This document shows positions 13,219-56,457 of a DNA stretch of 64,000 nucleotides, one piece after another. Source of the stretch: Bacteroidota bacterium (lineage in GTDB: Bacteria; Bacteroidota; Bacteroidia; 2-12-FULL-35-15); NCBI GenBank assembly GCA_021323165.1, contig JAJTCJ010000003.1, positions 4,321-68,320 on the forward strand, given 5' to 3'. The position numbers were made by a program, and so were the translations under genes. Under the pieces are notes generated by a model that was not told where the DNA came from, ran no database searches, and was given only the letters and a program-made list of their open reading frames with translations. Positions within the stretch are counted from its first letter, which is position 1; every line of letters begins with the position of its first letter.

Positions 13219-13293
13219 AGTTTGTTGAGTAAATATATAATTTTAATTTCATGACAAGCCATTTTGAAGTTAAGAAAGCCAGATATTTTATAC

Positions 13294-13301: not shown

Positions 13302-13312
13302 GTTAACAGAAT

Positions 13313-30346: not shown

Positions 30347-30381
30347 TAAAAAAGGCTCCCAGAAAATGAGAGCCTTTTTTA
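30347..30381. terminator. bidirectional hairpin terminator between convergent genes
   Basis: GGCTC / GAGCC stem flanked by an A-run (30347-30353) and a T-run (30375-30380). Confidence 0.65.
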
Positions 30382-30951
30382 TTTTAAAGAGTTTTCAATT
30401 ACATCTATAAGAGTATGAATAACTTTAATATGGATCTCCTGGACACGATCGGCATAATCACTCCGGGGCGCACGTATTTCCACATCACACAGGGAGGCAA
30501 TCTTTCCTCCGTCTTTGCCTGTTAAAGCAATAACAGTCATTCCTTTTTCTTTTGCCGCGTTAACCGCGTTGATAACATTGGCGGAATTTCCGCTGGTGCT
30601 GATTGCAAGTAGAACATCTTCTTTTTTTCCAAGAGCTTCTATATATCTTGAAAATATTTTATCAAATCCGTAATCATTGGCAACGCAAGTGATATGTGAA
30701 GGATCAGAAATAGAAATTGCTGGCAGAGCTGCTCTTTCATTCCGGAATCTGCCGCTAAGCTCTTCAGCGAAATGCATAGCATCACACATTGATCCTCCGT
30801 TGCCGCACGAAATGATCTTCCCACCATTTTTAACAGCATTCACCATTAGCGTAGCGGCACTTTCAATAGCTTTAATATTAGATGGATCTGCGATGAAGTT
30901 GGAAAGAACTTGATGCGCTTCTTTTAAATTTTGCTCAATCAGATTTTTCAT
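30379..30951 (-). CDS. gmhA: D-sedoheptulose-7-phosphate isomerase (SIS)
   Basis: [17 protein letters not shown] and ISTSGNS motifs, 190 aa. Confidence 0.85.
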
Positions 30952-31637: not shown

Positions 31638-31889
31638 TTAGTTTTCGAATAGCTCAAATTCATAAGATTCCATGATCTGATTAGCCAGCAGCTTTTTGCA
31701 CGCCTCATCAACTTTACTTTTTGCAGCTTCTTTGGATGCAGCTTCTATTTCGAGAGTGATATGCTTACCAATTCTTACATTTTCAATTTCCGGTAAACCA
31801 AGATTCTTCATACTGCCTGTAACCGCTTTTCCTTGTGGATCAAGTAATGCTTTTAATGGCATCACATCTATTTCTGCTCTGAATTTCAT
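31638..31889 (-). CDS. purS: phosphoribosylformylglycinamidine synthase subunit PurS
   Basis: 83 aa with the PurS-like pattern V.PK..VLDPQG.AV...L..LG...V..VR.GK. Confidence 0.8.
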   Translation of the reverse strand: MKFRAEIDVMPLKALLDPQGKAVTGSMKNLGLPEIENVRIGKHITLEIEAASKEAAKSKVDEACKKLLANQIMESYEFELFEN

Positions 31890-32662
31890 TTATTTAAGTT
31901 TTTAAGTTTTTTTCTTCTTTTCCGTCTTTGTCTAAAGTTACTTCCGATAGATAAAACAATGTACAAAAATATGATAAAAGGGATTGCAATGAATTGAAAT
32001 AGTATTAACAAAAAGACTGAAATTATTAAAAATGAAAACCTGATACGATTAGGCTGCCATCTGAATGATTTGAATTTTAAAGCGAAAAGCGGAAGTTCAG
32101 CGACCAGTAAGAATGACATAATAATCGTTAATCCTACCAATAAATAAGGATTCAGAAGAAAAGGCTCATAGTTATCATATCCCTTATTCTGAAATTTTAA
32201 TATAAGCGGTAATGAACAGATCAGAATACTGTTTGCCGGTGTAGGAACACCAATGAAAGAATCACTCTGGCGCGTATCGATATTGAATTTTGCCAAACGA
32301 AGGCCAGAAAAGACAGTTATAAAAAATCCAAAATATGGAAGAACAGGATTGCCCATCGGGGTTTCAGTGATGGGAACCGCTAAAGCATAATTGAGGCCTT
32401 GTTGTATTAAATGGTACATTACAACCCCGGGAACCACTCCAAATGTGACCATGTCTGCCAACGAATCAAGCTGTTTGCCAAGTTCGCCTCCTACTTTCAA
32501 TATTCGGGCAACAAATCCGTCAAAGAAGTCGAGAACAGCTGCGATTCCTACCAGATATGCACTGATCACCAGATTACCGTTAAACGCAGAAACAATTGCT
32601 GCACAACCACAGAACAAATTGCCGCAGGTGATCGCATTCGGAAAGTGCTTTAAGAGTTTCAT
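31886..32662 (-). CDS. pssA: CDP-diacylglycerol--serine O-phosphatidyltransferase
   Basis: CDP-alcohol phosphatidyltransferase motif DFFDGFVARILKVGGELGKQLDSLADMV. 4-bp overlap with purS. Confidence 0.85.
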   Translation of the reverse strand: MKLLKHFPNAITCGNLFCGCAAIVSAFNGNLVISAYLVGIAAVLDFFDGFVARILKVGGELGKQLDSLADMVTFGVVPGVVMYHLIQQGLNYALAVPITETPMGNPVLPYFGFFITVFSGLRLAKFNIDTRQSDSFIGVPTPANSILICSLPLILKFQNKGYDNYEPFLLNPYLLVGLTIIMSFLLVAELPLFALKFKSFRWQPNRIRFSFLIISVFLLILFQFIAIPFIIFLYIVLSIGSNFRQRRKRRKKLKNLNK

Positions 32663-32768
32663 CTTTGGCGAAAATACTATTTTTTGCTGAATTAATCTTC
32701 TTTACAGAAACGGATGATGGAGCTGATCTTTGAAGAATCAGAGAATAGTTTTTACATATCTTTATAAC

Positions 32769-34196
32769 ATGCAATTTATTTTGCCTGCCGTTTACTGTCT
32801 AGTGTTCATTTTCCTTATTGGTAAGATGAATTTTTTTGAAAATGCTTTTCTTTCAAGAACCAGGCTCGTTGTGTTGTTTTTTTTGAAAATAGCAGCAGCT
32901 GTTTCTGTCTGGCTTCTTTACACTTTTTATTATTCAGGTTCCGATTTCCTGACTTATTTTTCAGACAGTTCCGTTTTAATTCACAACTTGTTTAACCCGG
33001 ATCATCAGGAATATTCTTCAGTTTGGGAAGGAAGCTTTAATAATTCAGTATTTAATAGTGCCAGAATGATGATTTGTCTTAATGCCTTTTTGCATATTTT
33101 TTCCTTTGGTAACTTTTATGTTCATGGCTTGTTCTTTTGCTTTTTTTCTTTTCTGGGACTTGTTGCTTTATTAAAAAATATTGCAAATCATTTTCCTGAG
33201 AAGAGGAACGTAATAATCGCTCTGTTCTTTATACCTAGTATTATCTTCTGGGGATCAGCACCGCTTAAAGAATCTGTAATTATAGGAGTGGCCGGGTTGC
33301 TTGTGTTTTTAACTGATTTTGGGCTTAGAATAAATTATTCTAAAAAAACAATTTTGATGGTCTTTTTAATGGTTGGTTTACTCTCTGTTTTAAAAATATA
33401 TGTGCTGCTTGCTTTATTTCCTTTGTTAATTACCAATCAGCTTATTGCCAGAACTTCTGTACGGTTTGTTTTACTTAAATATATTGCTGTATTTGCATTG
33501 ATGGCAGCATGCCTGTTTCTAAGCTCTCTTATAAGTGATGAATTAAATATTTTAAAGATCATTTCGGATAAACAGGCTAAAGCAATAAGTGAGGCTAAAG
33601 GAGGAATATTTTTAGCTGATGATAAAAATTTTGTGTGTGTTGACTATGGTAAGAAAAATGATGTTCTGGAAATGATCACTGACAGCACATATCGTATAAA
33701 GAAAGGAAGCACTTTCATGAGCTGGAAGTTGGAAAATATGTCGGACACAACTTTTGTTGTCAACTCACAGGATACATCAATCTATAAGATCCTTTACCAG
33801 CAGATTCCTGCACGTTCTGTGATTCCTGTCAGGAAACTAAAACCGGTTATAACTGAATACTTAGCGTACACTCCAATAGCTTTTATTAATACATTGATAA
33901 GGCCCGGTTTCTGGGAAATAAGATCCTGGCTTCAGCTGATCATGGTTATAGAAAATTTATGGATTGTATTTCTTATCGTTTTATCGATTGTGTTTTTTGA
34001 TAAAGGAATTCTGAATAAAAAACACATCGTGATATTCTGTATTTTGTTTTCCTTAATAATATTTGTTCTGATAGGATTAACTACTCCTGTAATAGGTGCG
34101 ATGGTCAGATATAAAACCATTGGCTTGCTTTTTCTCAGCGTTGCTTGTATCATTATGCTGGACACAAATAGGCTCAGAAAAATATTTTCCAGATAG
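32769..34196 (+). CDS. large polytopic membrane protein, function unknown
   Basis: About 10 or more TM segments with a ~110-aa soluble loop. ATG 32769 preferred over TTG 32730. Its stop abuts the stop of the convergent GT-C gene. Confidence 0.55.
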   Translation: MQFILPAVYCLVFIFLIGKMNFFENAFLSRTRLVVLFFLKIAAAVSVWLLYTFYYSGSDFLTYFSDSSVLIHNLFNPDHQEYSSVWEGSFNNSVFNSARMMICLNAFLHIFSFGNFYVHGLFFCFFSFLGLVALLKNIANHFPEKRNVIIALFFIPSIIFWGSAPLKESVIIGVAGLLVFLTDFGLRINYSKKTILMVFLMVGLLSVLKIYVLLALFPLLITNQLIARTSVRFVLLKYIAVFALMAACLFLSSLISDELNILKIISDKQAKAISEAKGGIFLADDKNFVCVDYGKKNDVLEMITDSTYRIKKGSTFMSWKLENMSDTTFVVNSQDTSIYKILYQQIPARSVIPVRKLKPVITEYLAYTPIAFINTLIRPGFWEIRSWLQLIMVIENLWIVFLIVLSIVFFDKGILNKKHIVIFCILFSLIIFVLIGLTTPVIGAMVRYKTIGLLFLSVACIIMLDTNRLRKIFSR

Positions 34197-35576
34197 TTAT
34201 TCTCCGGGATTTTTATACAAAGAAATATACACCTGACCGGATGCGAATTTTTTCACAAGAAGCCAGCTTGCCTTAACCTCTTCCACCTGAAACGGAATAT
34301 CTGTATTAATGATGTTGGTTTGAAGGAAATAAGAATAATCACTGATAGGTCCGCTCCAGACATTAGTATAACTAAATGATGAATCACTCAGATTAGAAAA
34401 ACGTGTATCAGCAATCAATGGATATTGTGTTCCTATTTCTTTGTTGGAAATATTCTTCTGCAGGATAAATTCATCCATCTGGTCTTTCAATTTAAAATAA
34501 GGAATAACTTTTAACGAAGAATCCCATGCGTTTCCATAACGTTCCGGATAGATCCAAAAGTTACCTGAAACCAGACTTATAGTAAATAAACCAGCACATA
34601 TGTTTCTGATAATTTTGTCAGGAATGGATTGCAACAGGTAACAAACAAAAATATTTAGCAATAAAAAAATCCCCAAAAAATATTTTGGTCCTATAGGATT
34701 TGATAATGGCGACATCCAAATGGTGAGGATTAATAAGGGAATGAAAATTATTGTGGATAAAAGCTTGAATTCGGGAGTTCCGTTTCTTCTGAAGAACACT
34801 AAACCGTAGAAAACTACAAAGCTCCACAAAATTATCCGGCCCTGATCTACAAGTTTCCAGCCAATGTAAAATATTTTCTTAAGGGTCATAAAAGGCGAAG
34901 TCCAGGCTTCGTCCGTATATTCACGAAGAGGAGAGAAAAATAACCAGCCTGTTTTTTCTTTATGAAAAAGCGTCCAGATAATTAATGCGATAAGAGCAGG
35001 AATATATTTTAAGAAGATTATCCCGGCCTTTTTAAATATGAACATATCAATTACAAAAAGAGAGCATCCTAACATAATTCCTCTCATACTGCTCATGCAG
35101 AGAAATACCAGTGCAATTGAAAAAGTCCATTTTCTTTCATTAAGTAAGGCATTTAATGCTATCATAAAAAAGCAAACCATGAGTATGTCATATCCCATGA
35201 GTATAGCCTGAGTGGAGAGAACAGGTTCCGCAATTAGTAATATGAATGCATGTTTAATGGTAGAAGGCTGCAGGAATCGTTTAGCGAGTTTGAAGTATTC
35301 AATTATTATAACAATTAAAAAAGGTAAAACCGCTAAATGAGATACTACTAAGGATTTCCCGAAGATCTTCCATACAGCTGCTAAATAAAGTGAATACATA
35401 GGGAAGCCTCCTGTATCCGGAATTTCATTGTTTAGAATTTCACTGAAATTGTTATTGAAATAGTGTACAGCTATCTCTGAGAAAAAAGTGCCGTCCCAGA
35501 AAAAGGGGATATTTAAACTGACTAGAATAAGTATCAGAAAAAAGAATAAAGAAAAGTAGAGGTACTTATTCTGCAT
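34197..35576 (-). CDS. GT-C fold membrane glycosyltransferase, ArnT/PMT_2-like
   Basis: 459 aa with about 11 TM helices. First-loop FFWDGTFFSEIA, PMYSLYLAAVWKIFGKS and YDILMVCFFMIALNAL patterns. Confidence 0.65.
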   Translation of the reverse strand: MQNKYLYFSLFFFLILILVSLNIPFFWDGTFFSEIAVHYFNNNFSEILNNEIPDTGGFPMYSLYLAAVWKIFGKSLVVSHLAVLPFLIVIIIEYFKLAKRFLQPSTIKHAFILLIAEPVLSTQAILMGYDILMVCFFMIALNALLNERKWTFSIALVFLCMSSMRGIMLGCSLFVIDMFIFKKAGIIFLKYIPALIALIIWTLFHKEKTGWLFFSPLREYTDEAWTSPFMTLKKIFYIGWKLVDQGRIILWSFVVFYGLVFFRRNGTPEFKLLSTIIFIPLLILTIWMSPLSNPIGPKYFLGIFLLLNIFVCYLLQSIPDKIIRNICAGLFTISLVSGNFWIYPERYGNAWDSSLKVIPYFKLKDQMDEFILQKNISNKEIGTQYPLIADTRFSNLSDSSFSYTNVWSGPISDYSYFLQTNIINTDIPFQVEEVKASWLLVKKFASGQVYISLYKNPGE

Positions 35577-36504
35577 TATCAGCGCTCTTTACTATTTCCG
35601 CAATGCTGTACTGAGGTTTATTATTTACAGCAAGATACATTCTGCCGATATACTCACCAACAATACCAAGTGTAATTAAAATTAAACCGCTGAAGAGAAT
35701 GATCAGAACAACGACAGTGGTCCAGCCTTCTATGTAGTTTTTTGTAACAAAGTAATCATACAGATATTTAATAAGCAGGCAAATCCCAACAAGTGTTGCT
35801 ATACACCCTGTAAATGTTGCAATGCGGAGTGGTATCACCGAAAAGCCGGTAAACAGTTTCATAAATACAGAAAAGGATCTTGTGAACGAATAATTACTTT
35901 TTCCGGAATTTCGTTTGTGATGTTCTATATTAACTTGTGTAATACTTGAGGTTATGCTGAGAAGGATGCCGTCAATATAAGGATACGGACCTCCGAATTT
36001 AATGATCTCATTTACTGTAGAACGGTTAATTACTTTGAACGGAGAAAGATAGATTTCCTTTGGTTTTTGAACTAATAATTGAGCCATTCGGCCATTAAGA
36101 TCACTTCCGGTATTCTTGACAAAATTTTGCTTTTTTGAAATAAAATTTCCATAACAAACATCAAAGCCTTTTAAACAGGCTTGGTATAGAGTGATGATAT
36201 CAGAAGGATTATGCTGCAAGTCATCATCCATAATAACAACATAATTGCCTCTTGATGATCTTAAACCGGCAAGAAGAGCATTATCCTGTCCACTGTTCTT
36301 TCTTAATTGCAAACCGGTAATGTTTGAATTAGTAAGAGCGAGCGATCGTATCTTTTCCCAGCTGTTATCAATACTGCCGTCATTAACAAAAATAATCTCG
36401 TGATCAATTCCTTCCAAAGCTTTACACAATTGCCCATGCAGCTCAGTTATAATTGCTGAACTGTTATAAACAGGAATAACTATGCTTATTTCGGGAAAAT
36501 TCAT
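35566..36504 (-). CDS. GT2 polyprenyl-phosphate glycosyltransferase (ArnC/GtrB-like)
   Basis: VIPVYNS, VNDGSIDNS and IMDDDLQH motifs, plus two C-terminal TM helices ending IVGEYIGRMY. Confidence 0.8.
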   Translation of the reverse strand: MNFPEISIVIPVYNSSAIITELHGQLCKALEGIDHEIIFVNDGSIDNSWEKIRSLALTNSNITGLQLRKNSGQDNALLAGLRSSRGNYVVIMDDDLQHNPSDIITLYQACLKGFDVCYGNFISKKQNFVKNTGSDLNGRMAQLLVQKPKEIYLSPFKVINRSTVNEIIKFGGPYPYIDGILLSITSSITQVNIEHHKRNSGKSNYSFTRSFSVFMKLFTGFSVIPLRIATFTGCIATLVGICLLIKYLYDYFVTKNYIEGWTTVVVLIILFSGLILITLGIVGEYIGRMYLAVNNKPQYSIAEIVKSADNAE

Positions 36505-37118
36505 TTATTTAATTCGATGATGATATCCTTGCTGATCCGATCCCGGATAGTAAAAGTAAAATTTAATTTATTGCTTAAAGATTCAAGTTCCTTTATTAAT
36601 GTGGTTTCTGTATACCTGAATTCCTGTTCTTTGCCTTTAACTGAAGCGGAGCGTTTGGCTAATTTACCAATAATTCCTGTTTGATCGGAAAGATTAATGA
36701 CAGGTTCAGAGATAAGTATACGTGGAGCAGATTCAAACATTTTTTTTATCAGGGCTTCCAGCCCCGAATGAAAATGATAAAGAGAGCCAGTTATGATACA
36801 AACTTCTGCTTTTTCTAAACCGGGAATAGTATTCAGATCGGATAATTCCGCATTATATCCTTTTGATTTGGCATGTTCAACGAATCCTGCATTGATATCA
36901 TAACCTTTCCATGAAATTTTATTCTTAAAACAATGATCAGCAATATAAGTGTCACCAAAACATAACTCAATTGCATTTTTTTCTTTTAGAAGCTTAATAA
37001 CCGCTTTAAACCGCTTCAGGTATTCACCTTTGTAAAGCAGGTTCATACAAAATCTGTAGATCCGTATGTTTGAGTATATAAACGCGGTTTTTGTCACTGT
37101 TCTCAAGGCTTTCTGCAA
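36501..37118 (-). CDS. class I SAM-dependent methyltransferase
   Basis: Motif I-like IELCFGDT, GYDIN, and VCIITGSLYHF. TTG start at 37118, with ATG 37046 as the alternative. Confidence 0.6.
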   Translation of the reverse strand: MQKALRTVTKTAFIYSNIRIYRFCMNLLYKGEYLKRFKAVIKLLKEKNAIELCFGDTYIADHCFKNKISWKGYDINAGFVEHAKSKGYNAELSDLNTIPGLEKAEVCIITGSLYHFHSGLEALIKKMFESAPRILISEPVINLSDQTGIIGKLAKRSASVKGKEQEFRYTETTLIKELESLSNKLNFTFTIRDRISKDIIIELNK

Positions 37119-37207
37119 ATATAAGAATTGAAGGCAATAATAACCTGAAAGTGCCGTTATTGTTCGTTTGCAAATGAAATTAAAATGTCTTATTTTTATA
37201 TCCGTTT

Positions 37208-38290
37208 ATGAAGAAAACCGTAATCACATTTTTGTCTGCAGTTCTGTTTGCAACAGGTGTAAAGGCTCAGGCTCCAAAGTACAGTAACGAATTTCTGAAC
37301 ATTGGAGTAGGGGCGAGAGCATTAGGAATGTCCAATTCCTATGTTACTTCCGTAAATGATGTAACAGCAGGTTATTGGAATCCGGCCGGCCTGAACGGTA
37401 TTGGAAACCAGCATCAGGTAGCTCTTATGCACAGTGAATATTTTGCAGGTATTGCAAAGTACGATTATGGAGCATTCGCGACCCGTTTGGATAGTGCAAG
37501 TGTTTTGGGTATAAGCCTCATACGTTTTGGTGTTGATGATATTCCGAATACTACTGAACTTATTGATGCCAACGGAAATGTTGATTATGACAGAATAACT
37601 ACCTTCTCTGCGGTTGATTGGGGCTTTTTAGTTTCTTATGCAAAAAAATCTAAGATCAAAGGGCTTAATCTGGGCGGAAGTGTTAAAATAATCAGAAGAA
37701 AAGTTGGTGATTTTGCTGGTGCCTGGGGTTTCGGACTGGATGCAGGAGCTCAATATGATCATAATAAATGGAAGTTTGCCGCAATGGCGAGAGATGTAAC
37801 TTCTACTTTTAATGCCTGGAGTTATAATCTTTCTGATGAAACAAAAGCAGTATTTCTCCAGACAGGAAATGAGATCCCGGAAAATGGAGTAGAGATCACC
37901 CTTCCTAAATTGATCCTTGGTGCTTCCAGAAAATTCGATCTTTCAAAAAAAATATCACTTCTTGCTGAAGTTAATCTCGACAATACTTTTGACGGGAAAA
38001 GGAACGTTCTTGTGAAGACCAATGTGATCAGTATGGATCCGCATATTGGAATTGAGGCTGGTTACATGGATATGATCTTTTTAAGGGGTGGTATTGGTAA
38101 CTTTCAATCTTACACAGATGCTGATGGCAAAAAGGTTCGTACTCTCCAGCCTAATATAGGTGTTGGGGTAAGGATAAAATCTATTTATATAGACTATGCA
38201 TTGACTGATATTGGCGATCAATCTGTTGCATTATATTCCAATGTATTCTCGATTAAGATCGACATTAATAAGAAAAAGCCCAAATCGTAA
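37208..38290 (+). CDS. PorV/PorQ-family outer-membrane beta-barrel (T9SS)
   Basis: Signal peptide and the FLNIGVGARALGMSNSYV...AGYWNPAGL N-terminal pattern. Strand-like throughout. Confidence 0.6.
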   Translation: MKKTVITFLSAVLFATGVKAQAPKYSNEFLNIGVGARALGMSNSYVTSVNDVTAGYWNPAGLNGIGNQHQVALMHSEYFAGIAKYDYGAFATRLDSASVLGISLIRFGVDDIPNTTELIDANGNVDYDRITTFSAVDWGFLVSYAKKSKIKGLNLGGSVKIIRRKVGDFAGAWGFGLDAGAQYDHNKWKFAAMARDVTSTFNAWSYNLSDETKAVFLQTGNEIPENGVEITLPKLILGASRKFDLSKKISLLAEVNLDNTFDGKRNVLVKTNVISMDPHIGIEAGYMDMIFLRGGIGNFQSYTDADGKKVRTLQPNIGVGVRIKSIYIDYALTDIGDQSVALYSNVFSIKIDINKKKPKS

Positions 38291-38305
38291 AGATGGGATC
38301 CATAA

Positions 38306-41300
38306 ATGATAAAACGCTTATTTTCTTTATGCTTATTATTATTTGTGTTCATTGGTTTAAGGGCTCAGCCTTACGGCAATGAATGGATCAACTATTCTCA
38401 GAAGTATTACAAAATAAAAATTGCAAAGAATGGGATCTTTCGTATCGATTCTTTAACCCTTTCTTCTGCGGGTATCGATCTTAATACCATCGACCCTCAT
38501 CATTTCCAGATCTTTAACAAAGGAATAGAGCAGGCAATCTTCATTCAGGGTGAATCCGATAACGTTTTTAACAACGGTGATTTTATTGAATTCTATGCTG
38601 AAAAAAATGATGGGTCCTTGGATACGTTGTTGTATAAGAATACTTCATTTCTTCCTAATCCATATTATAGTCTTGTAAATGATACAGCTGTTTATTTTTT
38701 AACCTGGAATAATTCTGTTGCCGGAAGCCGGATGCAGCAGTTGGCTGATACTTCATTTTCCGCTTATACTCCTGTTGATTATTTTTTTAAAGAATCCATC
38801 AAAGATTTCCACTCATCTTATTTTGCCGGAGCTACGGATAATGTTGGCGGCACTGATGCACGATATACAGCAGCTGAAGGCTGGTTTGATGATGAAAATA
38901 ATGTGATCACTCCTGGACAAACTATTGCGTACAATAATATAATCAATACATCCGGCAGATTTTTATCCGGTCCTGATGCAATTGTTAAAACAGTGGTAGT
39001 CGGAGCTTCTAAGAATGTTTTGTTGCCCGGAGCTGATCATCGTTTAGCAATTGAATATGGACCATCTAATTCTTTGCTTGTTGACACTCTTTTTAAAGGA
39101 TACAGTTCCAATAGATTTATAAAAAGTGTACCTCTTACAAATTTGGGCAACACCTTTACAGATTTTAAATTTACAAGTGTCGCAAATGCAGGCTTTACTT
39201 CTAACCGTGCAGCTGTATCGTATATCTATGTGAAATACCCTCATATATTGGATCTTGAAAATAAAAGTAATTTTCTTTTTTATCTTCCTGATAATACTTC
39301 GGCTTCGCAATCATACCTGGATCTTAGTGGTTTCATTTCTTCAGGGACCTCCCGATTGTACGATCTTACGAATGGAAACAGAATAGATCTTGTTCAATCC
39401 GGATCTACTTTCAAAGTACTTGTTCCAAATGCTTCGAATGAAAAGAAATGTTATATAACGGCAGAATCAGATGTGTTCAATATTGCTTCGATCGAACCAG
39501 TATCAGCAAATGCGGAGTTCACTAACTTTCAGACATTGAATCCGGATTCTGCTTATGTGATCATTACGAATAAAAAGCTGATGAGTTCTGCGGACCAGTA
39601 TAAAGTTTACAGAAGCAATTTGGCCGGTGGTTCTCATTATGTGATCCTTGCTGATATCGATGAGCTTTATGATCAGTTCGCATATGGCCTCGTTAAAAGT
39701 CCTCTTGCGATCCGGGGTTTTGCAGATCAGCTTCTTGATGTTTCTTCTACACCTCCTGCAGGTTTGTTTTTACTCGGAAAATCAATTCACTTAAGTGATT
39801 GTCGTCAGGACGTGAATAATTATATAAATTGTCTTGTTCCATCATTCGGATATCCTTCAAGTGACAATCTGCTTACAGCAGGTTTAGACGGGTCGGTTCT
39901 TTCTCCTGCTATACCTACCGGGAGGCTTTCAGCGAAAACAGATGGGGATGTCATTATGTACCTTGATAAGATGAAGGACTATGAGCTATTAACTTCTCCT
40001 GAGGAATGGATGAAATATATTTTACATTTCGGTGGCGGAACAACAATTTATGAGCAAAGCTCTTTTAGAACTTATTTGAATAGATATAAAAGCATTATCG
40101 AGGATGTAAAATTTGGAGGTAGTGTTGTAAAAAGTTTTTTCAAAAACAGTCCTGCTCCTATAACCATCAACTCTTCAGATACACTGCGTGACCTCATAAA
40201 TAACGGAGTTGCTATGCTTACTTTTTTTGGGCATGCTTCCGGAAGCGGCTTCGACCAAAGTATCGATGATTGGAGCTCTTATCATCCTTTACCGGGAAGA
40301 TATCCTTTTCTGCTGGCCAATTCATGTTATGCAGGAGATTTTCATTCAACAGGTGAGAGTTCAAGCGAAGTATATACTTTTCAGGAAAACAATGGTGTGA
40401 TTGGTTATCTGGGCTCTGTTGGACTGGGAGTACCATACACTTTGGATTATTTTTCCACCGAATTTTATAAACAAATTTCAGATCTCAATTATAATAAAAG
40501 TGTTGGGAGTTCGATTCAAAAAGTGATTCAGGCTCTTGAACCGTTTGCATTAACACAGGGTGATTCATTATTGCGTCAAACATGTTATGAAATGAATCTT
40601 CACGGAGATCCGTTATTAAAAATTCATGGCTTTGATAAACCTGATTATAAGATCAGTAATAATGATGTTTATTTTGATCAGACAAGCAATGATAACACAG
40701 TTACTATATATGCTATTCGTAAGAATTTAGGCATGGCAGTGAATGATTCTATTTTCACGGAAGTTTTGCGGATACTTCCCAATGGTGATACATTAACCTA
40801 TCTGGTTAGGAACAGCGCTCCAAAATTTAAGGATACGATCTCTATTACTATCCCTATAGATTTTGTGAATGGTATTGGTTTAAATAAAATACAGATCACT
40901 CTTGACAGAAATCTTGAAGTCGATGAATCAGATGAAACAAATAACACTACCACTTTGATTGACCTCTTGATTGTAGGAGGAACTATAATTCCGGTATATC
41001 CTTATGAATTCGCGATTATCCCTAAAGACACTGTTACTCTTAAAGCAACCACAGCCAATATTTTTGCTCCGCTTACAGCTTACAGGTTTCAATTTGATAC
41101 AACAGACGCGTTTAACAGCCCTCTTAAAGATACAATCATCAATTCAACAGGTGGAGTTATTGAATGGCATCCTGATGTAACATTAACTAATAACACTGTT
41201 TATTACTGGCGTGTAAGTCCTGATTCTACTAGTCCTTTAAATCCTTTCGCCTGGAGGGAAAGCTCGTTTCAGTATATTTCTCAAAAAAAGGGTTGGGAGC

Positions 41301-43306
41301 AAGCCCATTTTTATCAGTTTAAAAATAATTCCTACCAGTATGTTAAGTATGAACGGCCTCTGAGAAGTTTCAGTTTTGTGAATGATATTAAAACTATTTT
41401 TTGCAGAAATGGAATACCACCCTATATTCCTACGTTTGATAACGTTTATAAAATAAACGGTGTTGTTAAATATGAATCCAGCTGGATGTATATGACACCA
41501 GGTATTGTACTGGCTGTAATTGATACAATTAATGGAAATCCAATGCTTAATTATGCAACTGGCTATCCTGGCAATGGGGGAAGTTATAGCAGTTATACAG
41601 GATATAATCCTCCGCGAAGTGAATTCGCTTTTGAGTATTTTGAAAGTCAGCCAGATACTTTGATCAATTTTATTCAGAATGTTATTCCTTCTGGTTCTTA
41701 TGTTTTAGGATACAGTCAGGGATATCAAAACATTTCATCCTTGCCTGCAGCTGTCCATAGTCAGTTTCAAACTCTTGGAGTTAACAGCAGTGCTATACCC
41801 GATTCTGTCCCATATATTTTCTGGGGGAGAAAAGGAATTACTCCAGGTTCAACTGTAACTGTTATCGGGGCTGCACCCGATTCTATTATTGAATTATATG
41901 GTTCAATCGAAACGAACTGGACCGAAGGTTTTATAGCTTCTCCTGAAATAGGTCCTGCTCAGAGCTGGGATTCTTTATCCTGGAGCTGGCATTCACTGGA
42001 AGGAATTGTAAATACAGACAGCATTGTAGTTCAATTGACAGGTATAAGATCAGATGGAACAGATTCTGTTCTGGCTGTTTTTAATGAAACACAGTTAGAT
42101 ATTTCTAATTTAGGATCTTATGTAAATGCTGTTCAATTTCCGAAGATCCGATTAACGGCTTACATGAGTGATGATGTTGTTCATACCGCGCCTCAACTGG
42201 ATCGCTGGCAGGTTATATATTCTCCTGTACCTGAAGCAACAATAAATCCGCTTGCCGGTTTTAATTTTACTGACTCACTTCAGCAGGGTGAAACAGCACA
42301 AGTTCTATTGCCAATACAAAATATTAGTGAATATACCTTTAATGATAGTTTATTGGTTACGTATTGGATCGAAGATGCTAACAGGATAAATCATCCTCTG
42401 CAGGATAAGATGAAAAAGAATTTGTTTGCTCCTTCAGAGGTTATTATTGATACGATAAGAGTTAATACTTCCGATTATCCGGGAAGTAATTATTTATGGA
42501 TCGAAGTCAACCCAACCGGTCAAACCCGATCGCAGCTGGAGCAGTATCATTTTAACAATATAACCAAGATTCCTTTCTACATTGATATTGACAAAATAAA
42601 TCCGCTTCTCGATGTCACATTTGACGGTATTCATATTTTAAATAATGATATTGTATCTGCAAAGCCTAATATTATAATTTCTTTGAAAGACGAAAATAAA
42701 TTCCTCGCTTTGAATGATACAAATGATTTTAAAGTTTTTCTAAAAGGCCCTTCATCTCCTGTCGCTCAGCGGATTTATTTTGGGAACACAATGTCATTTG
42801 AACCAGCTGTTTTACCAAATAATAGTTGCAGGATTAATTATACACCTGCCTTGTATCAGGATGGGAATTATCAGTTACTTGTTCAGGCTAAGGATAAATC
42901 GGATAATCAATCCGGAGCAATAGATTATAAAATTAGCTTTGAGGTGATTAACAGGTCTACGATAACGGAAGTAATGAATTATCCCAATCCATTCAGCACT
43001 TCCACGCGTTTTGTTTTTACACTAACAGGTTCAGAAGAACCGACAAACTTCAAAATTCAGATAATGACCATCACAGGTAAAGTTGTTCGTGAGATTTTTC
43101 AGGATGAACTTGGTCCTATTCATATCGGAAGAAATATTTCTGAATTTGCATGGGATGGGAAAGATGAATTCGGTGATCAGTTGGCCAATGGAGTTTATCT
43201 CTATCATGTGATCACACGTATTAATGGAAATGAAATTGAAAAGCGCGAAACCAGCGCTGATCAGTATTTCAAAAAAGGCTGGGGGAAAATGTATCTGATG
43301 AGATGA
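38306..43306 (+). CDS. peptidase C25 (gingipain-fold) PorU-like T9SS sortase-type protein, 1666 aa
   Basis: PorU-like N-terminus, His643 in FFGHASG (40232-40234), Cys674 in LANSCYAG (40325-40327), and a C-terminal Ig/CTD-like domain NYPNPFSTSTRFVFTL...GVYLYHV. Confidence 0.7.
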   Translation: MIKRLFSLCLLLFVFIGLRAQPYGNEWINYSQKYYKIKIAKNGIFRIDSLTLSSAGIDLNTIDPHHFQIFNKGIEQAIFIQGESDNVFNNGDFIEFYAEKNDGSLDTLLYKNTSFLPNPYYSLVNDTAVYFLTWNNSVAGSRMQQLADTSFSAYTPVDYFFKESIKDFHSSYFAGATDNVGGTDARYTAAEGWFDDENNVITPGQTIAYNNIINTSGRFLSGPDAIVKTVVVGASKNVLLPGADHRLAIEYGPSNSLLVDTLFKGYSSNRFIKSVPLTNLGNTFTDFKFTSVANAGFTSNRAAVSYIYVKYPHILDLENKSNFLFYLPDNTSASQSYLDLSGFISSGTSRLYDLTNGNRIDLVQSGSTFKVLVPNASNEKKCYITAESDVFNIASIEPVSANAEFTNFQTLNPDSAYVIITNKKLMSSADQYKVYRSNLAGGSHYVILADIDELYDQFAYGLVKSPLAIRGFADQLLDVSSTPPAGLFLLGKSIHLSDCRQDVNNYINCLVPSFGYPSSDNLLTAGLDGSVLSPAIPTGRLSAKTDGDVIMYLDKMKDYELLTSPEEWMKYILHFGGGTTIYEQSSFRTYLNRYKSIIEDVKFGGSVVKSFFKNSPAPITINSSDTLRDLINNGVAMLTFFGHASGSGFDQSIDDWSSYHPLPGRYPFLLANSCYAGDFHSTGESSSEVYTFQENNGVIGYLGSVGLGVPYTLDYFSTEFYKQISDLNYNKSVGSSIQKVIQALEPFALTQGDSLLRQTCYEMNLHGDPLLKIHGFDKPDYKISNNDVYFDQTSNDNTVTIYAIRKNLGMAVNDSIFTEVLRILPNGDTLTYLVRNSAPKFKDTISITIPIDFVNGIGLNKIQITLDRNLEVDESDETNNTTTLIDLLIVGGTIIPVYPYEFAIIPKDTVTLKATTANIFAPLTAYRFQFDTTDAFNSPLKDTIINSTGGVIEWHPDVTLTNNTVYYWRVSPDSTSPLNPFAWRESSFQYISQKKGWEQAHFYQFKNNSYQYVKYERPLRSFSFVNDIKTIFCRNGIPPYIPTFDNVYKINGVVKYESSWMYMTPGIVLAVIDTINGNPMLNYATGYPGNGGSYSSYTGYNPPRSEFAFEYFESQPDTLINFIQNVIPSGSYVLGYSQGYQNISSLPAAVHSQFQTLGVNSSAIPDSVPYIFWGRKGITPGSTVTVIGAAPDSIIELYGSIETNWTEGFIASPEIGPAQSWDSLSWSWHSLEGIVNTDSIVVQLTGIRSDGTDSVLAVFNETQLDISNLGSYVNAVQFPKIRLTAYMSDDVVHTAPQLDRWQVIYSPVPEATINPLAGFNFTDSLQQGETAQVLLPIQNISEYTFNDSLLVTYWIEDANRINHPLQDKMKKNLFAPSEVIIDTIRVNTSDYPGSNYLWIEVNPTGQTRSQLEQYHFNNITKIPFYIDIDKINPLLDVTFDGIHILNNDIVSAKPNIIISLKDENKFLALNDTNDFKVFLKGPSSPVAQRIYFGNTMSFEPAVLPNNSCRINYTPALYQDGNYQLLVQAKDKSDNQSGAIDYKISFEVINRSTITEVMNYPNPFSTSTRFVFTLTGSEEPTNFKIQIMTITGKVVREIFQDELGPIHIGRNISEFAWDGKDEFGDQLANGVYLYHVITRINGNEIEKRETSADQYFKKGWGKMYLMR

Positions 43307-43930
43307 TGAGAACTTTCGCTTTTACATCGCTGTTTTGTTTTCTCTTCTCTATAGGTTTTTCTCAATCGGTTTTTAAAAAAATCAAAAAGCTCTCACGACC
43401 AGAAAAATTTTGGGTCATAGCACATCCCTTCAAAGCAAAAAAAGCATTTCAAATTACCTCCCAGGTTATTGCTGATGTCGACTCGCTTAAAAAAACCAGC
43501 ACAAATTGGTTCCGATCTTAATGGAGGCAGATTAGATGCATTTAAACATTCATATTGGATAGCAATGCTATCAACTAAGATTGGAGTCAAACAATCGCTG
43601 AAGCTTGGTAAAGCTCATGAAAAAGGGAATTATCTTGAATTTAAAAAACACAGGTTAGAAGATTCTATCTTGCCTGATTCAGCTAGTTCTGCAATGGATC
43701 TTCATAATAACCAACAGGGTGTTGCTGCTTTAGGAAGGTGTGCTGTTCCGATAACTGATAAGAGTGTACAACAGGAAATTATGAAAGCGATCGAACAGGG
43801 GCACATGATGATAATTAAGAAAGACAAACTCGGAAATTATTTATATTGTGATGGTACTTTTATCGATACAAATGTGTGGGCAGGGAAATGGAATATTCCC
43901 AAATGCCTGATTCCCTCCGATAAGGACTAA
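43303..43930 (+). pseudogene. small secreted protein gene interrupted by a frameshift in an A7 tract
   Basis: ORF 43303..43521 (signal peptide) and ORF 43469..43930 join into one 208-aa protein if the A7 run at 43489-43495 is read as A6. The start overlaps the PorU-like stop (ATGA). Confidence 0.6.
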
Positions 43931-43947: not shown

Positions 43948-45555
43948 ATGACATTTAAAAAATATCAGCTTTTATTACTTGCATGTTTGAGCGGAATATT
44001 ATTCGCTTTAGGTTGGTTCCCGAACGGAATGTTTCCTTTTCTTTTTGTTGCTTTTGTTCCTTTGCTTTTTGTTGAAGAATATTTTTTCAGGACCTCTTCA
44101 TTAAAGCCCCGCCTTCTTTTTTTATATACTTATATCGCTTTTTTTCTCTGGAATATTTTAACAACATGGTGGGTGAAGAATGCCTCTTTTGGAGGTGCGG
44201 CCATGGCAATTTTCTGCAATGCTCTTTTAATGTCAATCCCATTCCTGCTTTTTCATAGAACAAGAAAGCGAGTAGGGCTGAAATGGTCGTATGTTCTGTT
44301 TATCTGTTATTGGCTTTCTTTTGAATTTATTCACTCAAACTGGCAATTAAGCTGGTCCTGGCTTACACTCGGGAATGCATTCGCAGACGCAGCTTCAATT
44401 ATTCAATGGTATGAGTATACAGGTGTATTCGGAGGAAGTTTATGGATCCTGGTGATAAATGTTTTTATCTATGAATTTCTGAAGAATGTTAAATTACGTG
44501 CAAGGAAAGAAAATGTAAAAGATGTGCTGATCATTGCAATAGGATTAATACTGCCTGTTCTTTTTTCATTTATCATTTCGGTTACATGGAAAATGGACGA
44601 CACTGAATCGATACAGGTTGTTGCTGTCCAGCCGAACATTGATCCTTACAATGAAAAATTTGATGCTCCTTTTGAAATTCAGTTATCAAAGATGCTTGAA
44701 CTTGCTTCTCAAAAAATAGATCAGAATACTGATTATGTCCTGTTTCCTGAAACAGCTCTTACTGAAGAGATCTGGGAAAATAGGATCGAACAGAGTACAA
44801 GCATTCAGATCTTAAATTCTTTTCTGAAGAATTATCCTAAATTAAAAATTGTGATCGGTGCTTCCACTGCAAAATTCTATGAACCGGGTGAAGAACTTTC
44901 TGTTACTGCCAGGAAATTCACAATGCAGGATTCATATTATGATGCTTACAATACAGCACTTCAGCTCGATAATAAATCTGCTATGCAGATCTATCACAAA
45001 TCGAAGTTAGTACCCGGTGTAGAGCAGATGCCTTTTCCTTTTATTTTCAAACATCTGGAAAGTATTGCAATAGATCTTGGCGGAACAACAGGCAGCCTCG
45101 GAACTCAGGACGACAGGGAAGTTTTTGTTTCTCCTGATGGAAAGATAAAAACAGCACCGGTTGTCTGCTACGAAAGTGTATATGGTGAATATGTAACGGA
45201 ATACATTAAAAATGGTGCGGACTTCATTTCGATCATTACCAATGATGGCTGGTGGGGTGATACCCCCGGTTATAAGCAGCATTTGAAATACGGAAGACTT
45301 CGTGCAATAGAAACACGCAGGTGGATAGCACGATCCGCTAATACAGGAATTTCCTGTTTTATAAGCCCTCGTGGAGAAATTCAGCAGGCAACCAATTATT
45401 GGGTTCCGGCAGTGATTTCTCAGAAGATCTATCTCAATAAAGAAATGACTTTTTACACTCGTTTTGGAGATTATATTGCAAGAGCAGCTCTCTGCATAAG
45501 CATTGCTATGCTTTTATATGCCTTGATCTTAAAATTCAGAAAGATCAGAAAATAA
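43948..45555 (+). CDS. lnt: apolipoprotein N-acyltransferase
   Basis: N-terminal multi-TM domain plus a CN-hydrolase domain with LFPETAL (Glu), HKSKLVPGVE (Lys) and VCYESVYG (Cys). Confidence 0.9.
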   Translation: MTFKKYQLLLLACLSGILFALGWFPNGMFPFLFVAFVPLLFVEEYFFRTSSLKPRLLFLYTYIAFFLWNILTTWWVKNASFGGAAMAIFCNALLMSIPFLLFHRTRKRVGLKWSYVLFICYWLSFEFIHSNWQLSWSWLTLGNAFADAASIIQWYEYTGVFGGSLWILVINVFIYEFLKNVKLRARKENVKDVLIIAIGLILPVLFSFIISVTWKMDDTESIQVVAVQPNIDPYNEKFDAPFEIQLSKMLELASQKIDQNTDYVLFPETALTEEIWENRIEQSTSIQILNSFLKNYPKLKIVIGASTAKFYEPGEELSVTARKFTMQDSYYDAYNTALQLDNKSAMQIYHKSKLVPGVEQMPFPFIFKHLESIAIDLGGTTGSLGTQDDREVFVSPDGKIKTAPVVCYESVYGEYVTEYIKNGADFISIITNDGWWGDTPGYKQHLKYGRLRAIETRRWIARSANTGISCFISPRGEIQQATNYWVPAVISQKIYLNKEMTFYTRFGDYIARAALCISIAMLLYALILKFRKIRK

Positions 45556-49944: not shown

Positions 49945-52900
49945 TTACTTGATTTTAACAAGTTTCGAAGTATAAACCTTAGAATTAGTTGTTAAAGTAA
50001 CTGAATAAATTCCTTCAGCTTGCTCATTCAGATCTATTAATGAAGAGTTGGTTCCTTTTTCACAATAAACTGTCTTAGATAAAACTTCGCGACCACTGTA
50101 ATCATAAACTTTTAAGATGGCAGTTTCGGAAGTCAAGCAACTATAAACGATCTCGGTTGTGTTAGCAGTTGGATTTGGTTTAATGTTAAACACTGAAATG
50201 TCATCACCAATTGTAACTGTTGCGATAGATGAATATTTGTAGTTATTGTCAAAATCAGTTTGTTTCAAACGGTAGTAGTAAATTCCATTTTGAACATCCC
50301 TATCATTTAAATAATAATTTAATCTACCGGTACTGTTTCCACTTGGTGCCTTTGAATTAACAGTTCCAATGCTGCTGAATTCGACTCCGTCTGTAGACCG
50401 TTCAACACTAAAGAAATCGTTATTAGTTTCTGAGGCTGTTTCCCAGGTAACATCAACTGAACCGTTAGTATTGTATTTTGCATCAAAGTTCAATAGTTCC
50501 ACAGGTAATGGATTTAATAGAACAGTTCCTAAAGAGGAGAATGTAAATGGACTAAAATTGGTTACTGTACTGGAAAAACCAACGTTTCCGGTTGCGCCAT
50601 AAGAACATGCAGGACCTGAGTATGCAGGACCAGTGTTTTCCCAAGCACTACCATTCCAGCGTGCAATAGCTAAAGAATCACATTTATAAATATAGCTTCT
50701 TCCAGAATTTTCCCAGTATAACCTAAGAGAAGTATTTCCTGTTGTTCCGTTAAGTCTGTCGAACATCCAGTGCTCAACCGCGCTAACGTGAGTAAGCTGA
50801 AGATTTGCAGCCTGAACAGCCATAGTAGTTACATTCGAATAAGGCGTAGCAAAATATTCTGCGCTAAAATCTGTTGCAGCAGTAGGAGCTGTCATTTGAA
50901 TTCTAGCCCAGTATGGACTTTTCCCAGTAGGGAAAATAAATGCATCTGTTCCCTTTTTAACAATTGGTCCGTTTACATAACTTGTTGCACTTCCCTGATT
51001 CGCTGTTGCAAGCGCATCAACCTGGATAACATTAGCAGTTGTAGTAGTTAGTAATCCGTTGATAAGCGACAGATTGTACGCAGCTGCAGATCCGGAAGGA
51101 GCTGTGAAAGAGACAGCAGTACCCGTAACTCTTAAAGGCTGCTGAAGAGTTACCGAAGAAGCAGATGTTTTGTCAATTGTTAAACTTCTTAAGCGGTAAG
51201 GATCAACAGTTGTACCTGCTCCGGCTGTTGTGGTAAATGTACCGGAGTTTTGAGTGTTAGCTAAATAGTAGATAAAATCAGCTCCGGCATCGTTTGTTTT
51301 AGTTCCTGAAGCCGTGATATTTCCCGTGTAACCTGAGGAATGACCCATTCCAAGTTTTGCATTTGCCTGAATTGCGAAGTTACCGGTTCCTGAAACAGGA
51401 TATGTAGCAGTATACAATGCTGCTGTTGATTCAACAGTCACTGTTCTTGAAGCTCCCACATCACCCATTTTTGATCCAGTTAGTGTAACTGTCTTTCCTG
51501 CTTTGATATTTGTGTTTGGCAGAGAAACAGTTCCGCCAGTTTGAGACCAGGTTACTGAAGCTACACCTCCCGATAAATTAATAGAGGTTAAACCGCCAGG
51601 TGAATCGTTGTATTGCCATGTTCCACCTGATACAGTGACATTTCCACCGATTGTCAGATTTGTTAAAGAACTGCTGTTTCCGCCTTCATAATCTTCAAAG
51701 ATACCGGATGTCATTAAAAAGTTTCCGGTTACATTTAAGGTAAGGACTACACCACCATTTCCTAAAACGCCTTTCCACCAACCTCCGCTGAATATTAGAT
51801 CACCTCCAACATTTATAGTTTCAGAAGTACCGTCTAGAAGATAGTTATTACTTCCAATTCTTCTCCACTCAAAGTCTCCCTGAATCGTATTCAAACAATT
51901 CTGCATACCAAAGTTTCCAGTTGTAGTACCGTTCAAAAGAACATTACCCCAGGAAGTTCCTGAAGGGAAAGTTCCACCACCCCATTGTAAGAACCACTGA
52001 TTAGAACGTGGCTCAAAGAAACGACCACCACTAGGTAGATACCCATTATTATCATGGATCCAGTAACTGCCATTTTCCATATAGAAGTTAGTAACATAAG
52101 CTCCAGAAGTTGCTTTTGCTCTTTGGATGAACGTTCCGCCTGTGTTAATACGTAAATCTGTCAAAGTTATTAAACAACCTAATGCAGATATCATAGTCCC
52201 TCCATTTTCAACATATAATACAGGTAATGTAAGAGCAGCTGTACTTGTCATTGTATGTCCATATTGTACATAAAATTCAGACCCTGCTGCGAACGAACCA
52301 GGAGAAGCTCCACTACCATCTCGGGTTGCACTCCAACTGGATAATAAATTAGGATTTAAGCTTCCTTTTGAATAATATGGGATTCCACAATTAATGATCC
52401 TGCTGCCAAAAGGATTGGTTACGGTCGGAGTTCTAGCCACTCCACCAACAGTTATGGAAGTGCATTGTGCATCTACTTTATTCGGGTCACATGCTGCAGT
52501 AGATTTTATATCATAAGAAAGCCAGAAATAATTTGTTCCTGAAAGTAAGACCTGTGCAGGAGTAATTGTAAAAGTTCCGCTAGGAGCTGCTATTGTCCCC
52601 CCAACCTGAACTGCGCCAGCATATAGATTTATGTCCTGAGAATACCAAAGTTTGGCATTTTGAATGTCTCCGACTACAGTTGTTCCTGTAGTGTTAAAAG
52701 TAAATGAAGTGACTGATAATGGGTTTAATGCCCCTGTGGTAACTATCTCAACTCCGATTATATGCTGGTTCACTTCACCTTTAGCTACTCTTGAGGTATT
52801 TTGAGTAGTGGTAGATGAAAAGTAAGCCATATTGTTTGCCGCCTTAGTTGGCCTGCATCCTGCCGGTGCAGAAGGAGAAGGAACAACCGTAGAAGCTGTA

Positions 52901-56214: not shown

Positions 56215-56457
56215 ATGAACTCGTTTAGTAATATAGTAATACACGAAGTTAAAATAATAAATAAGCTTTTGCAACAATTTGACCATTAAACAATTAACTA
56301 TTTTTTTTAAATAGGTATAAATACGCTATTTTTTAAGATAGCCAAGGCCGGAAAAGTAGTAGATAAACAGGGTAATTTAATGGGCAAAAACCTATGTGGG
56401 GAATGATTTGCCCAGCAAATCTTGGATTATTGTTAAATTTAAGGAATATTTGGAAAT

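Follow-up and report, generated by a model that had tools for sequence, protein, structure and literature searches.

Attachment of cargo proteins in type IX secretion systems (T9SS) is understood almost wholly from work on Porphyromonas gingivalis, in which a single sortase, PorU, links cargo to anionic lipopolysaccharide (LPS). We analyzed a stretch of 64,000 nucleotides from a member of the Bacteroidota (contig JAJTCJ010000003.1 of assembly GCA_021323165.1), hereafter the window, in which two adjacent genes encode relatives of PorV and PorU. The stretch lies on a 173-kb contig of a soil or freshwater metagenome-assembled genome. This pair belongs to the PorV2/PorU2 family, which has been named by NCBI and is unstudied experimentally. 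The deposited annotation gives both products as hypothetical proteins (MCE3277970.1, K0S44_161, and MCE3277971.1, K0S44_162); they can now be named PorV2 and PorU2. By analogy with its canonical relative, PorU2 is most likely a PorU-like peptidase/sortase of C-terminal sorting domains (CTDs) that works beside the core attachment complex. The original prediction, made before any database search, had likewise proposed a second, specialized sortase pair, one that may couple a subset of cargo to a dedicated glycolipid.

Among described systems, the PorU-PorV part of the P. gingivalis PorQUVZ attachment complex (6za2; PMC5562754, PMC10202324, PMC11285876) shares with the window pair the C25 dyad, PorU-type N-terminal and immunoglobulin-like (Ig-like) domains, a long CTD, retained in PorU, and a barrel of the PorV/PorQ family, which in the window is encoded next door. 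The differences are substantial. PorU2 is about 20% identical to PorU outside the CTD, has about 500 extra residues, which include an ILEI-like domain, and ends in a conserved 17-residue tail. The gene order is reversed, with the barrel first, PorV2 scores higher against PorQ (66 bits) than against PorV (33 bits), and we saw no PorZ or PorQ counterpart in the window locus. The gingipains RgpB and Kgp have the PF01364 family and a T9SS CTD in common with PorU2; they are not known to have the PorU-type N-terminal domains that PorU2 possesses. From the NCBIfam families NF052324 and NF052325 the window proteins show no structural difference, and the name that the family bears was given by a curator as a prediction.

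The pair belongs to the PorV2/PorU2 family

PorU2 matched NF052324, "putative type IX secretion system sortase PorU2", with 747.5 bits against a cutoff of 450, residues 6-880 falling on positions 3-879 of this N-terminal model of 879 positions. PorV2 matched NF052325, "putative type IX sorting system protein PorV2", over its full length (528 bits, cutoff 325; residues 6-353 on model positions 6-353) and is a member of the wider PorV/PorQ family NF033709 (103.2 bits, cutoff 90). In contrast, both proteins missed the canonical models. PorU2 scored 180.3 bits against the PorU model NF033707 (cutoff 420), which covers its residues 31 to 773, and PorV2 scored 32.8 bits against the PorV model NF033710 (cutoff 250) and 66.4 bits against the PorQ model NF033711 (cutoff 220). 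This comparison of profile hidden Markov models (HMMs) supports the expectation that the pair is not the core PorU/PorV. Single-sequence phmmer searches of the PDB with PorU2 and PorV2 gave no match and only profiles succeeded; a profile of 18 PorV2 sequences recovered Flavobacterium johnsoniae PorV (6h3i_F, E 5e-6). RefSeq applies the same names in Crocinitomix algicola (WP_066755385.1, PorU2, and WP_066756125.1, PorV2) and names the C. catalasitica homologue PorU2.

In the full-text literature we found no paper using the names PorU2 or PorV2; the apparent matches were false, being off-topic or produced by a citation superscript fused to a protein name. The family is thus catalogued as a prediction and not characterized. 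Articles on PorU-like proteins or PorU homologues yielded only canonical PorU and remarks on BamG and PorP. BamG, which is bound to BamA (PMC12578637), is by description a FadL homologue, whereas PorV2 passes the PorV/PorQ family model.

The sequence features on which the original prediction was built were all recovered at their positions. The 360-residue open reading frame (ORF) begins with a signal peptide and contains the PorV/PorQ-type motifs FLNIGVGARALGMSNSYV and GYWNPAGL. The 1666-residue ORF starts 15 bp further on, carries a PorU-like N-terminus and contains WINYSQKYYKIKIAKNGIFRIDS, GDFIEFYAEKNDG, FFGHASG, and LANSCYAG. The last two motifs include the clan-CD-type pair His643 (codon 40232-40234) and Cys674 (codon 40325-40327), counted from the ORF start in agreement with the lists of invariant columns. 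The porU2 stop codon TGA (43304-43306) overlaps an ATG at 43303, in the string ATGA. As read from the sequence, both proteins have a Sec-type signal peptide with cleavage between A and Q, and the start of mature PorU2, AQPYGNEWINYSQ, is conserved in homologues.

We scanned one genome per species of the GTDB and analyzed gene neighborhoods at the best 80 loci (loci are designated here by L numbers) of at least 572 species that encode a PorU2 relative; the matches at these 80 loci are mostly full-length. The cultured carriers are Crocinitomicaceae of the genera Crocinitomix, Paracrocinitomix, Putridiphycobacter, and Wandonia. PorV2 lies directly upstream of PorU2 in 61 of the 70 loci with enough flanking sequence. 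Seven loci have ample upstream sequence and no adjoining PorV2 (L019, L033, L042, L049, L054, L056, and L059). At L082, from a Salibacteraceae metagenome-assembled genome (MAG), PorU2 is divided into two ORFs (10001-11689 and 11690-15130) by a frameshift or an assembly error.

Locus L064, on a Flavobacteriales MAG contig (CAYWRZ010000007.1, 8796-24159), carries both sortase modules clustered within 16 kb. The genes for PorV2 (530 bits) and PorU2 (763 bits) are separated from gldJ by about 0.5 kb and by about 3.6 kb from a canonical porU-porV pair, whose products pass their models (PorU 1313.5 bits, cutoff 420; PorV 473 bits, cutoff 250). As both pairs stand on one contig, PorV2-PorU2 is a paralogous second pair in that genome. 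Between the PorU2 and the PorU of L064, identity is 24% along some 220 N-terminal residues (E 5e-12), 19% in the C25 domain, and 38% over the CTD. When the canonical PorU of L064 was used as query, the scores were bimodal: 3059 bits for itself and 77-109 bits for every PorU2 in the 80 loci. The bimodal scores and the low identity indicate that PorU2 and PorU are deep paralogs. Sequence comparison thus favors the "second sortase" reading, with PorV2/PorU2 as a separate paralogous family.

Catalytic dyad, sorting domain, and middle region of PorU2

PorU2 is collinear with PorU: in both, N-terminal domains are followed by a C25 domain that bears the His/Cys dyad, then by Ig-like domains, and lastly by a CTD. 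A profile of 13 PorU2 sequences searched against all PDB sequences (E ≤ 1) matched P. gingivalis PorU (6za2, E 1e-12). The other matches were weak (E about 0.02), limited to small unnamed domains (2kl6 and 3idu), and fell in the CARDB-like region; no gingipain entry was among them. In the alignment, H643 (FFGH) falls on His655 (AGH) and C674 (NSC) on Cys688 (ATC) of the 6za2 chain. The chain numbering is offset by +2 from that of UniProt, as checked on the motif IYDFTGRLV, which spans I1090-V1098 (PMC11285876). Therefore, C674 corresponds to C690, the residue altered in the published catalytic mutant porU C690A (PMC5562754), and H643 to H657. The pair named in the original prediction is thus aligned with the PorU catalytic dyad. 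The same columns align between PorU2 and PorU of L064, and both residues are invariant in all 74 full-length PorU2 sequences, which come from different GTDB species and are 37-65% identical to the window protein.

The CTD-like domain noticed at the C-terminus matched the T9SS type A sorting domain model TIGR04183 (residues 1559-1643; 23.2 bits, borderline against a cutoff of 23), with a weak Pfam FlgD_ig match at residues 1567-1635; Pfam Por_Secre_tail stayed below its cutoff in PorU2 homologues. The last 100 residues or so align with the PorU CTD (6za2 residues 1040-1137). With about 110 residues, this domain is similar in size to the uncleaved CTD of PorU (108 residues), the cleaved CTDs of cargo having 67-88 (PMC11285876). 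It is the best conserved part of PorU2, with 73% conservation against 28-61% elsewhere among the 74 sequences. Such conservation is unusual for T9SS sorting domains. Since the CTD is conserved far above the rest of the protein, it seems to bind a fixed partner and not to act as a disposable signal. Beyond the last predicted CTD strands lies the 17-residue tail ADQYFKKGWGKMYLMR, which is nearly invariant. In the canonical PorU of L064, no more than about 8 residues remain past the end of the CTD alignment, which leaves no room for an equivalent. Together, the conserved CTD and tail may form a fixed docking surface, most simply for PorV2.

PorU2 had been called oversized, and it is about 500 residues longer than PorU, yet its length is normal within its own family. 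The PorU of P. gingivalis is 1158 residues long (PMC11285876), the PorU model of NCBIfam spans 1095 positions, and canonical PorU in L064 reaches at most 1326 residues. The extra residues, about 500, sit between the C25 domain and the CTD (786 to 1040 in PorU, 768 to 1542 in PorU2). We searched residues 884-1555 of PorU2 against 1.84 billion representative proteins, and at least 1084 representative clusters matched this middle region at E ≤ 1e-30. Nearly all full-length cluster members have 1630-1740 residues and match at the same position, about residues 880-1580, so that the family is characterized by a conserved stretch, about 670 residues long, that separates the C25/CARDB domains from the CTD.

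An AlphaFold2 model of residues 770-1666 (mean pLDDT 80) predicts a chain of beta-sandwiches, including one for the CARDB-like region (residues 778-883), and a single alpha/beta domain at about residues 1069-1190. Foldseek searches with this whole model returned only generic multi-Ig/MG chains at TM < 0.2, with PorU at rank 34, and assigned none of the individual domains. At the position equivalent to the alpha/beta domain, the homologues P0003, P0014, P0040, and that of L083 match Pfam ILEI (PF15711) above cutoff, and the one canonical PorU examined, that of L064, has no Pfam match to ILEI. The ILEI-like domain is the least conserved part of PorU2 (28%).

Gene neighborhood and the glycosyltransferase operon

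The features of the window are listed in table 1.

Table 1. Features of the porV2-porU2 locus and other envelope-related genes; positions are counted from the first nucleotide of the window.
Feature	Position	Strand	Remarks
KdsD/KpsF-type arabinose-5-phosphate isomerase	9839-10930	+	
T9SS type-A CTD cargo gene	28295-30331	+	
GmhA sedoheptulose-7-phosphate isomerase	30379-30951	-	
PurS	31638-31889	-	Conserved upstream backbone
PssA-type CDP-alcohol phosphatidyltransferase	31886-32662	-	TIGR00473 pssA 99 bits (cutoff 107); Pfam PF01066
488-aa polytopic membrane protein	32730-34196	+	No family match; at least 5 hydrophobic stretches
459-aa GT-C-fold membrane glycosyltransferase	34197-35576	-	AlphaFold2 pLDDT 92.1, pTM 0.91
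GT2 polyprenyl-phosphate sugar synthase-like (ArnC/PgfS/GtrB type)	35566-36504	-	Pfam Glycos_transf_2 PF00535, E 1.6e-26
205-aa soluble protein	36501-37118	-	Candidate class I methyltransferase, unproven
Intergenic spacer, glycosyltransferase operon / PorV2, divergent	37119-37207	.	89 bp
PorV2	37208-38290	+	360 aa; predicted PorV/PorQ-family outer-membrane beta-barrel; signal peptide cleavage at about VKA/QAP
PorU2	38306-43306	+	1666 aa; C25 cysteine peptidase, paralog of T9SS sortase PorU
PorU2 signal peptide	38306-38365	+	Residues 1-20, MIKRLFSLCLLLFVFIGLRA followed by QPYG; read from translation
PorU-like N-terminal domains	38366-39553	+	Residues 21-416; NF033707 matched from residue 31
C25 catalytic domain	39554-40621	+	Residues 417-772; Pfam PF01364 Peptidase_C25, E 1.2e-47
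CARDB-like beta-sandwich domain	40637-40954	+	Residues 778-883; Pfam CARDB 20.3 bits, below cutoff 22.7
PorU2-specific middle region	40955-42970	+	Residues 884-1555; modeled as a beta-sandwich chain
ILEI-like alpha/beta domain	41510-41875	+	About residues 1069-1190, inside the middle region
C-terminal T9SS sorting domain	42971-43303	+	Residues 1556-1666, with conserved tail
PorU2 C-terminal tail	43253-43303	+	Residues 1650-1666, ADQYFKKGWGKMYLMR
DUF6973 secreted-protein gene	43303-43930	+	Split: 43303-43521 (signal-peptide half) and 43469-43930; ATGA-coupled to PorU2
Lnt apolipoprotein N-acyltransferase	43948-45555	+	TIGR00546 241.9 bits (cutoff 132.9); downstream backbone
T9SS type-A CTD cargo gene	49945-54729	-	
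T9SS type-A CTD cargo gene	55144-56286	-	
GlsA lyso-glycine lipid O-acyltransferase	57185-58081	+	

Across the loci, the pair is embedded in a backbone with the order TatC, DUF5686, LptB, PurS and PssA (on the opposite strand), PorV2-PorU2, Lnt, Lpd, HemH. Among 56 loci, PssA is found within 5.5 kb upstream in 29, abutting PorV2 in 16 of the 56, and Lnt within 4 kb downstream in 12. Over the whole range of the family (37-65% identity in PorU2), PssA-PurS is the neighbor most often kept beside PorV2, and it is often divergent from PorV2 across a spacer of about 100-200 bp. The window PssA is probably the housekeeping copy, and its persistence at this place is notable in a phylum with poorly conserved gene order.

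The interval between PssA and PorV2 looks like a variable site for envelope-modifying membrane enzymes. In nine to ten species, it holds a MBOAT gene (DltB-like, 122 bits) with a DUF1574 gene on the same strand as PorV2 (L011-L015, L018, L021, L032, and L077). Five loci have an Acyl_transf_3 gene in the slot upstream of PorV2 (L006, L057, L061, L072, and L080), and the neighbors of the pair in L004, L060, and L067 include GT-C genes of the PMT_2 type. The 488-aa membrane protein lies between PssA and the pair in close relatives and is present in L003-L007 and L012.

Downstream, the DUF6973 gene directly follows PorU2 in L003, L006, and L012 (gap 0, -3, or -27 bp); it likewise comes next in L029, a locus that begins inside PorU2. 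It is an unsplit ORF in L003 (15016-15639) and L004 (16600-17211). In the window, its frame changes between 43427 and 43500, an interval that includes an A7 run (43489-43495), and the sequence of the JGI contig is identical. The split could stem from an assembly error in the homopolymer, or the site could be a true pseudogene or phase-variable. Three T9SS type-A CTD cargo genes are present in the window, one with an Omp28-like region and one whose product, of 1594 residues, has BNR_assoc_N and GEVED domains. In several related loci, HemH is followed by a CTD cargo gene that encodes a GBD_T9SS_assoc domain. The window also carries the envelope-lipid and LPS genes GmhA, KdsD/KpsF, and GlsA.

Upstream of and divergent from PorV2, the window contains an operon described at first as methyltransferase, GT2 glycosyltransferase, and GT-C glycosyltransferase genes. 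The two glycosyltransferase (GT) assignments stood. The GT2 protein has its best NCBIfam matches to PgfS (172 bits) and ArnC (139 bits), both below cutoff, and two predicted C-terminal transmembrane helices (hydrophobic stretches at residues 221-254 and 257-288), the layout of ArnC, GtrB, and PgfS. The 459-aa protein has no Pfam match and no significant PDB profile match; its fold was assigned from the structure model, for which Foldseek returned ArnT (5f15, E 3.8e-6, TMq 0.59) followed by ALG12, ALG9, AftD, AftB, PglB, and Pmt4. The invariant Asp28, in the motif FWDG after the first transmembrane helix, may be the usual acidic residue of the first loop. The GT-C family is small, with 151 homologues in 5.8 billion proteins. 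A cluster considered as a distant relative (c24) was rejected, as an HMM of 118 family members misses it and it belongs to Acyl_transf_3.

The methyltransferase, on the other hand, is unproven: the 205-aa protein has no Pfam or NCBIfam match, and its PDB profile reached only E 0.16 to methyltransferase 3dli, in the motif I region. It accompanies GT2 and GT-C in L004, L007, L022, L024, and L083. The 89-bp spacer also stood, given a TTG start at 37118 for this ORF; JGI calls a 181-aa version. The longer 205-aa form is supported because five residues upstream of the JGI start (I14, Y15, N17, Y21, and R22) are invariant in homologues.

In layout and fold, the GT2 and GT-C proteins resemble the two-step periplasmic glycosylation systems ArnC/ArnT (transfer of aminoarabinose to lipid A), GtrB/GtrC, and Ppm1/Pmt. 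They differ in scoring below all equivalog cutoffs, and the operon has no visible gene for sugar-nucleotide biosynthesis or a flippase.

The linkage between these genes and the pair is real but lineage-limited. The GT module stands beside PorV2-PorU2 in seven of the 80 species loci; of the 42 loci that extend at least 4 kb to each side, four have it. In L003, L004, L007, and the window, it is upstream and divergent; its place in L016, L022, L024, and L068 is downstream and co-directional. Synteny with the GT operon is thus kept in some relatives and absent from about 90% of the species loci, and most loci carry PssA, Lnt, MBOAT and DUF1574, Acyl_transf_3, or unrelated genes where the window has the GT module. 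From the side of the GT-C family, six of the seven divergent members (35-41% identity) are encoded within one to three genes of PorV2-PorU2, in four gene orders. Locus tags of GT-C and PorU2 are four apart in three MAGs (K0S44_158/162, JWP12_1651/1655, and K0Q95_1615/1611), and at least ten listed GT-C homologues equal a listed PorU2 homologue in the size of their longest contig, some only 10-17 kb.

A strong competing explanation, to which we give slightly less than an even chance, is that the GT genes have no functional tie to PorV2-PorU2 and belong with PssA and Lnt, their adjacency to the pair reflecting an old conserved neighborhood. In actinobacteria, polyprenyl-phosphate-mannose synthase is linked to Lnt, and here PssA and Lnt are the commonest flanking genes after PorV2 (29 and 12 of 56 loci). 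In one arrangement, the GT genes lie between PorU2 and Lnt (L016, L022, and L083); in another, the GT-C gene is co-directional with PssA-PurS. The absence of the module from about 90% of PorU2 loci, and a GT-C member at L086 that adjoins PssA, agree with this explanation. Conversely, at L089 the GT-C, GT2, and methyltransferase genes abut PorU2 with neither PssA nor Lnt within 8 kb, and the repeated contig-size agreement with PorU2 homologues concerns a tiny family. As PssA, the pair, and Lnt are mutually linked, the GT linkage cannot be assigned cleanly to PorU2.

Proposed function and significance

The explanation that we favor as a whole, and regard as somewhat more probable than all others together, is that PorV2 and PorU2 form an operon encoding a surface-docked, PorU-like CTD peptidase/sortase pair, possibly with a glycolipid acceptor particular to the lineage. 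To the active site, architecture, and paralogy described above, export, docking, and activity can be added by analogy with P. gingivalis PorU-PorV. PorU2 would cross the inner membrane by Sec and be exported by the T9SS through its own CTD, and would then stay on the cell surface with this CTD docked to the PorV2 barrel. Cys674 and His643 would remove the CTD of a subset of cargo by way of a thioester intermediate, and the cleaved cargo would be released or passed to an amine-bearing surface acceptor. The 670-residue beta-sandwich stalk, with its ILEI-like domain, might serve to select the cargo or a glycan acceptor or to hold it in position. In this lineage, the ArnC-like GT2 and the ArnT-like GT-C, with the 205-aa protein, probably modify a periplasm-facing glycolipid. 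That this glycolipid could be the cargo acceptor is the weakest step. The dedicated-glycolipid coupling in the original prediction can call on six of the seven divergent GT-C members being beside the pair, and suffers from the module's presence in only seven of the 80 loci; we put it forward as a hypothesis with some comparative support in this lineage only.

Several observations weigh against the reading of PorV2-PorU2 as a second sortase pair with a possible glycolipid acceptor. Coexistence with a canonical pair was seen in one MAG only, that of L064, and the 64-kb window holds no other PorU-, PorV-, or GldJ-like ORF. PorV2 is not adjacent to PorU2 in 9 of 70 loci, and the ILEI match does not reach significance in the window PorU2 itself. 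The GT module is missing from about 90% of the sampled species loci, and the GT-C member of L086 has no PorU2 within 10 kb. Polytopic membrane proteins make up 29% of the genes at immediately flanking positions and 9% further out, an enrichment driven largely by PssA and Lnt that therefore carries no weight here; without these two genes the figures are 14% and 7.6%, about 2-fold (p 0.02, uncorrected for shared ancestry). Finally, we found in the literature no experiment on any member of the PorV2/PorU2 family.

In a bolder version, PorV2-PorU2 would be a second pathway of T9SS attachment that anchors a subset of CTD cargo to an acceptor of its own. This glycolipid or lipid would vary by lineage and be built or decorated by the adjoining membrane transferases. 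The candidate builders would be GT2 and GT-C in the window and MBOAT with DUF1574, Acyl_transf_3, or PMT_2 elsewhere. We regard this pathway as rather unlikely; if it existed, a single T9SS would for the first time be seen to have several sortase/acceptor pairs. The conserved PssA neighbor raises the alternative of an aminophospholipid acceptor. In Haloferax, the archaeosortase ArtA depends on PssA/PssD for lipid anchoring; there too, a C-terminal sorting peptidase is encoded near a gene of the phosphatidylserine synthase type. The likeness is an analogy only: ArtA and PorU2 are unrelated peptidases, and the window PssA, which is paired with PurS and looks like a housekeeping enzyme, matches NF038086, "protein sorting system archaetidylserine synthase", only weakly, with 58 bits where the cutoff is 200.

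PorU2 might instead be ordinary T9SS cargo, a gingipain-like degradative protease or adhesin without any sortase role, with PorV2 as its dedicated carrier or an unrelated porin. Gingipains belong to C25, the type-A-like CTD would fit a cargo protein, and surface enzymes and adhesins typically have long chains of domains such as the Ig-like, CARDB-like, and ILEI-like ones seen here. We nevertheless consider this improbable, since the homology with PorU extends beyond the C25 core to the N-terminal domains (NF033707, residues 31 to 773) and the PDB profile search gave PorU and no gingipain entry. In addition, length and architecture are uniform across at least 1084 clusters, and PorU2 is inherited with a housekeeping backbone (TatC, LptB, PurS, PssA ... 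Lnt, Lpd, HemH), not scattered like nutrient-acquisition proteases. The CTD, far better conserved than the remainder, again suggests a fixed binding partner. Finally, it is very improbable that the pair is the organism's core PorU/PorV, an ordinary T9SS that is only divergent and longer, as the PorU-like domain order, aligned dyad, and CTD, the adjoining PorV-family barrel, and the lack of another PorU/PorV in the window might suggest, because the equivalog cutoffs failed (PorU 180 vs. 420, PorV 33 vs. 250, PorQ 66 vs. 220) while the PorU2 and PorV2 models were passed widely, both kinds occur on the L064 contig with only 19-24% identity between PorU2 and PorU outside the CTD, PorU of L064 scores 3059 bits with itself and 77-109 bits with every PorU2, and PorV2 precedes PorU2 whereas porU precedes porV in L064.

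The PorV2-PorU2 pair is therefore best read as a PorU-like sortase pair beside the core complex. With at least 572 species genomes and no fewer than 1084 clusters, it is widespread; its architecture is uniform, and it is uncharacterized. This points to a cargo-sorting or surface-anchoring layer in environmental Bacteroidota that lies outside current models of the T9SS. The GT-C family tied to PorU2 loci provides a concrete candidate for acceptor biosynthesis, and the culturable Crocinitomicaceae that carry the pair open a direct experimental route.

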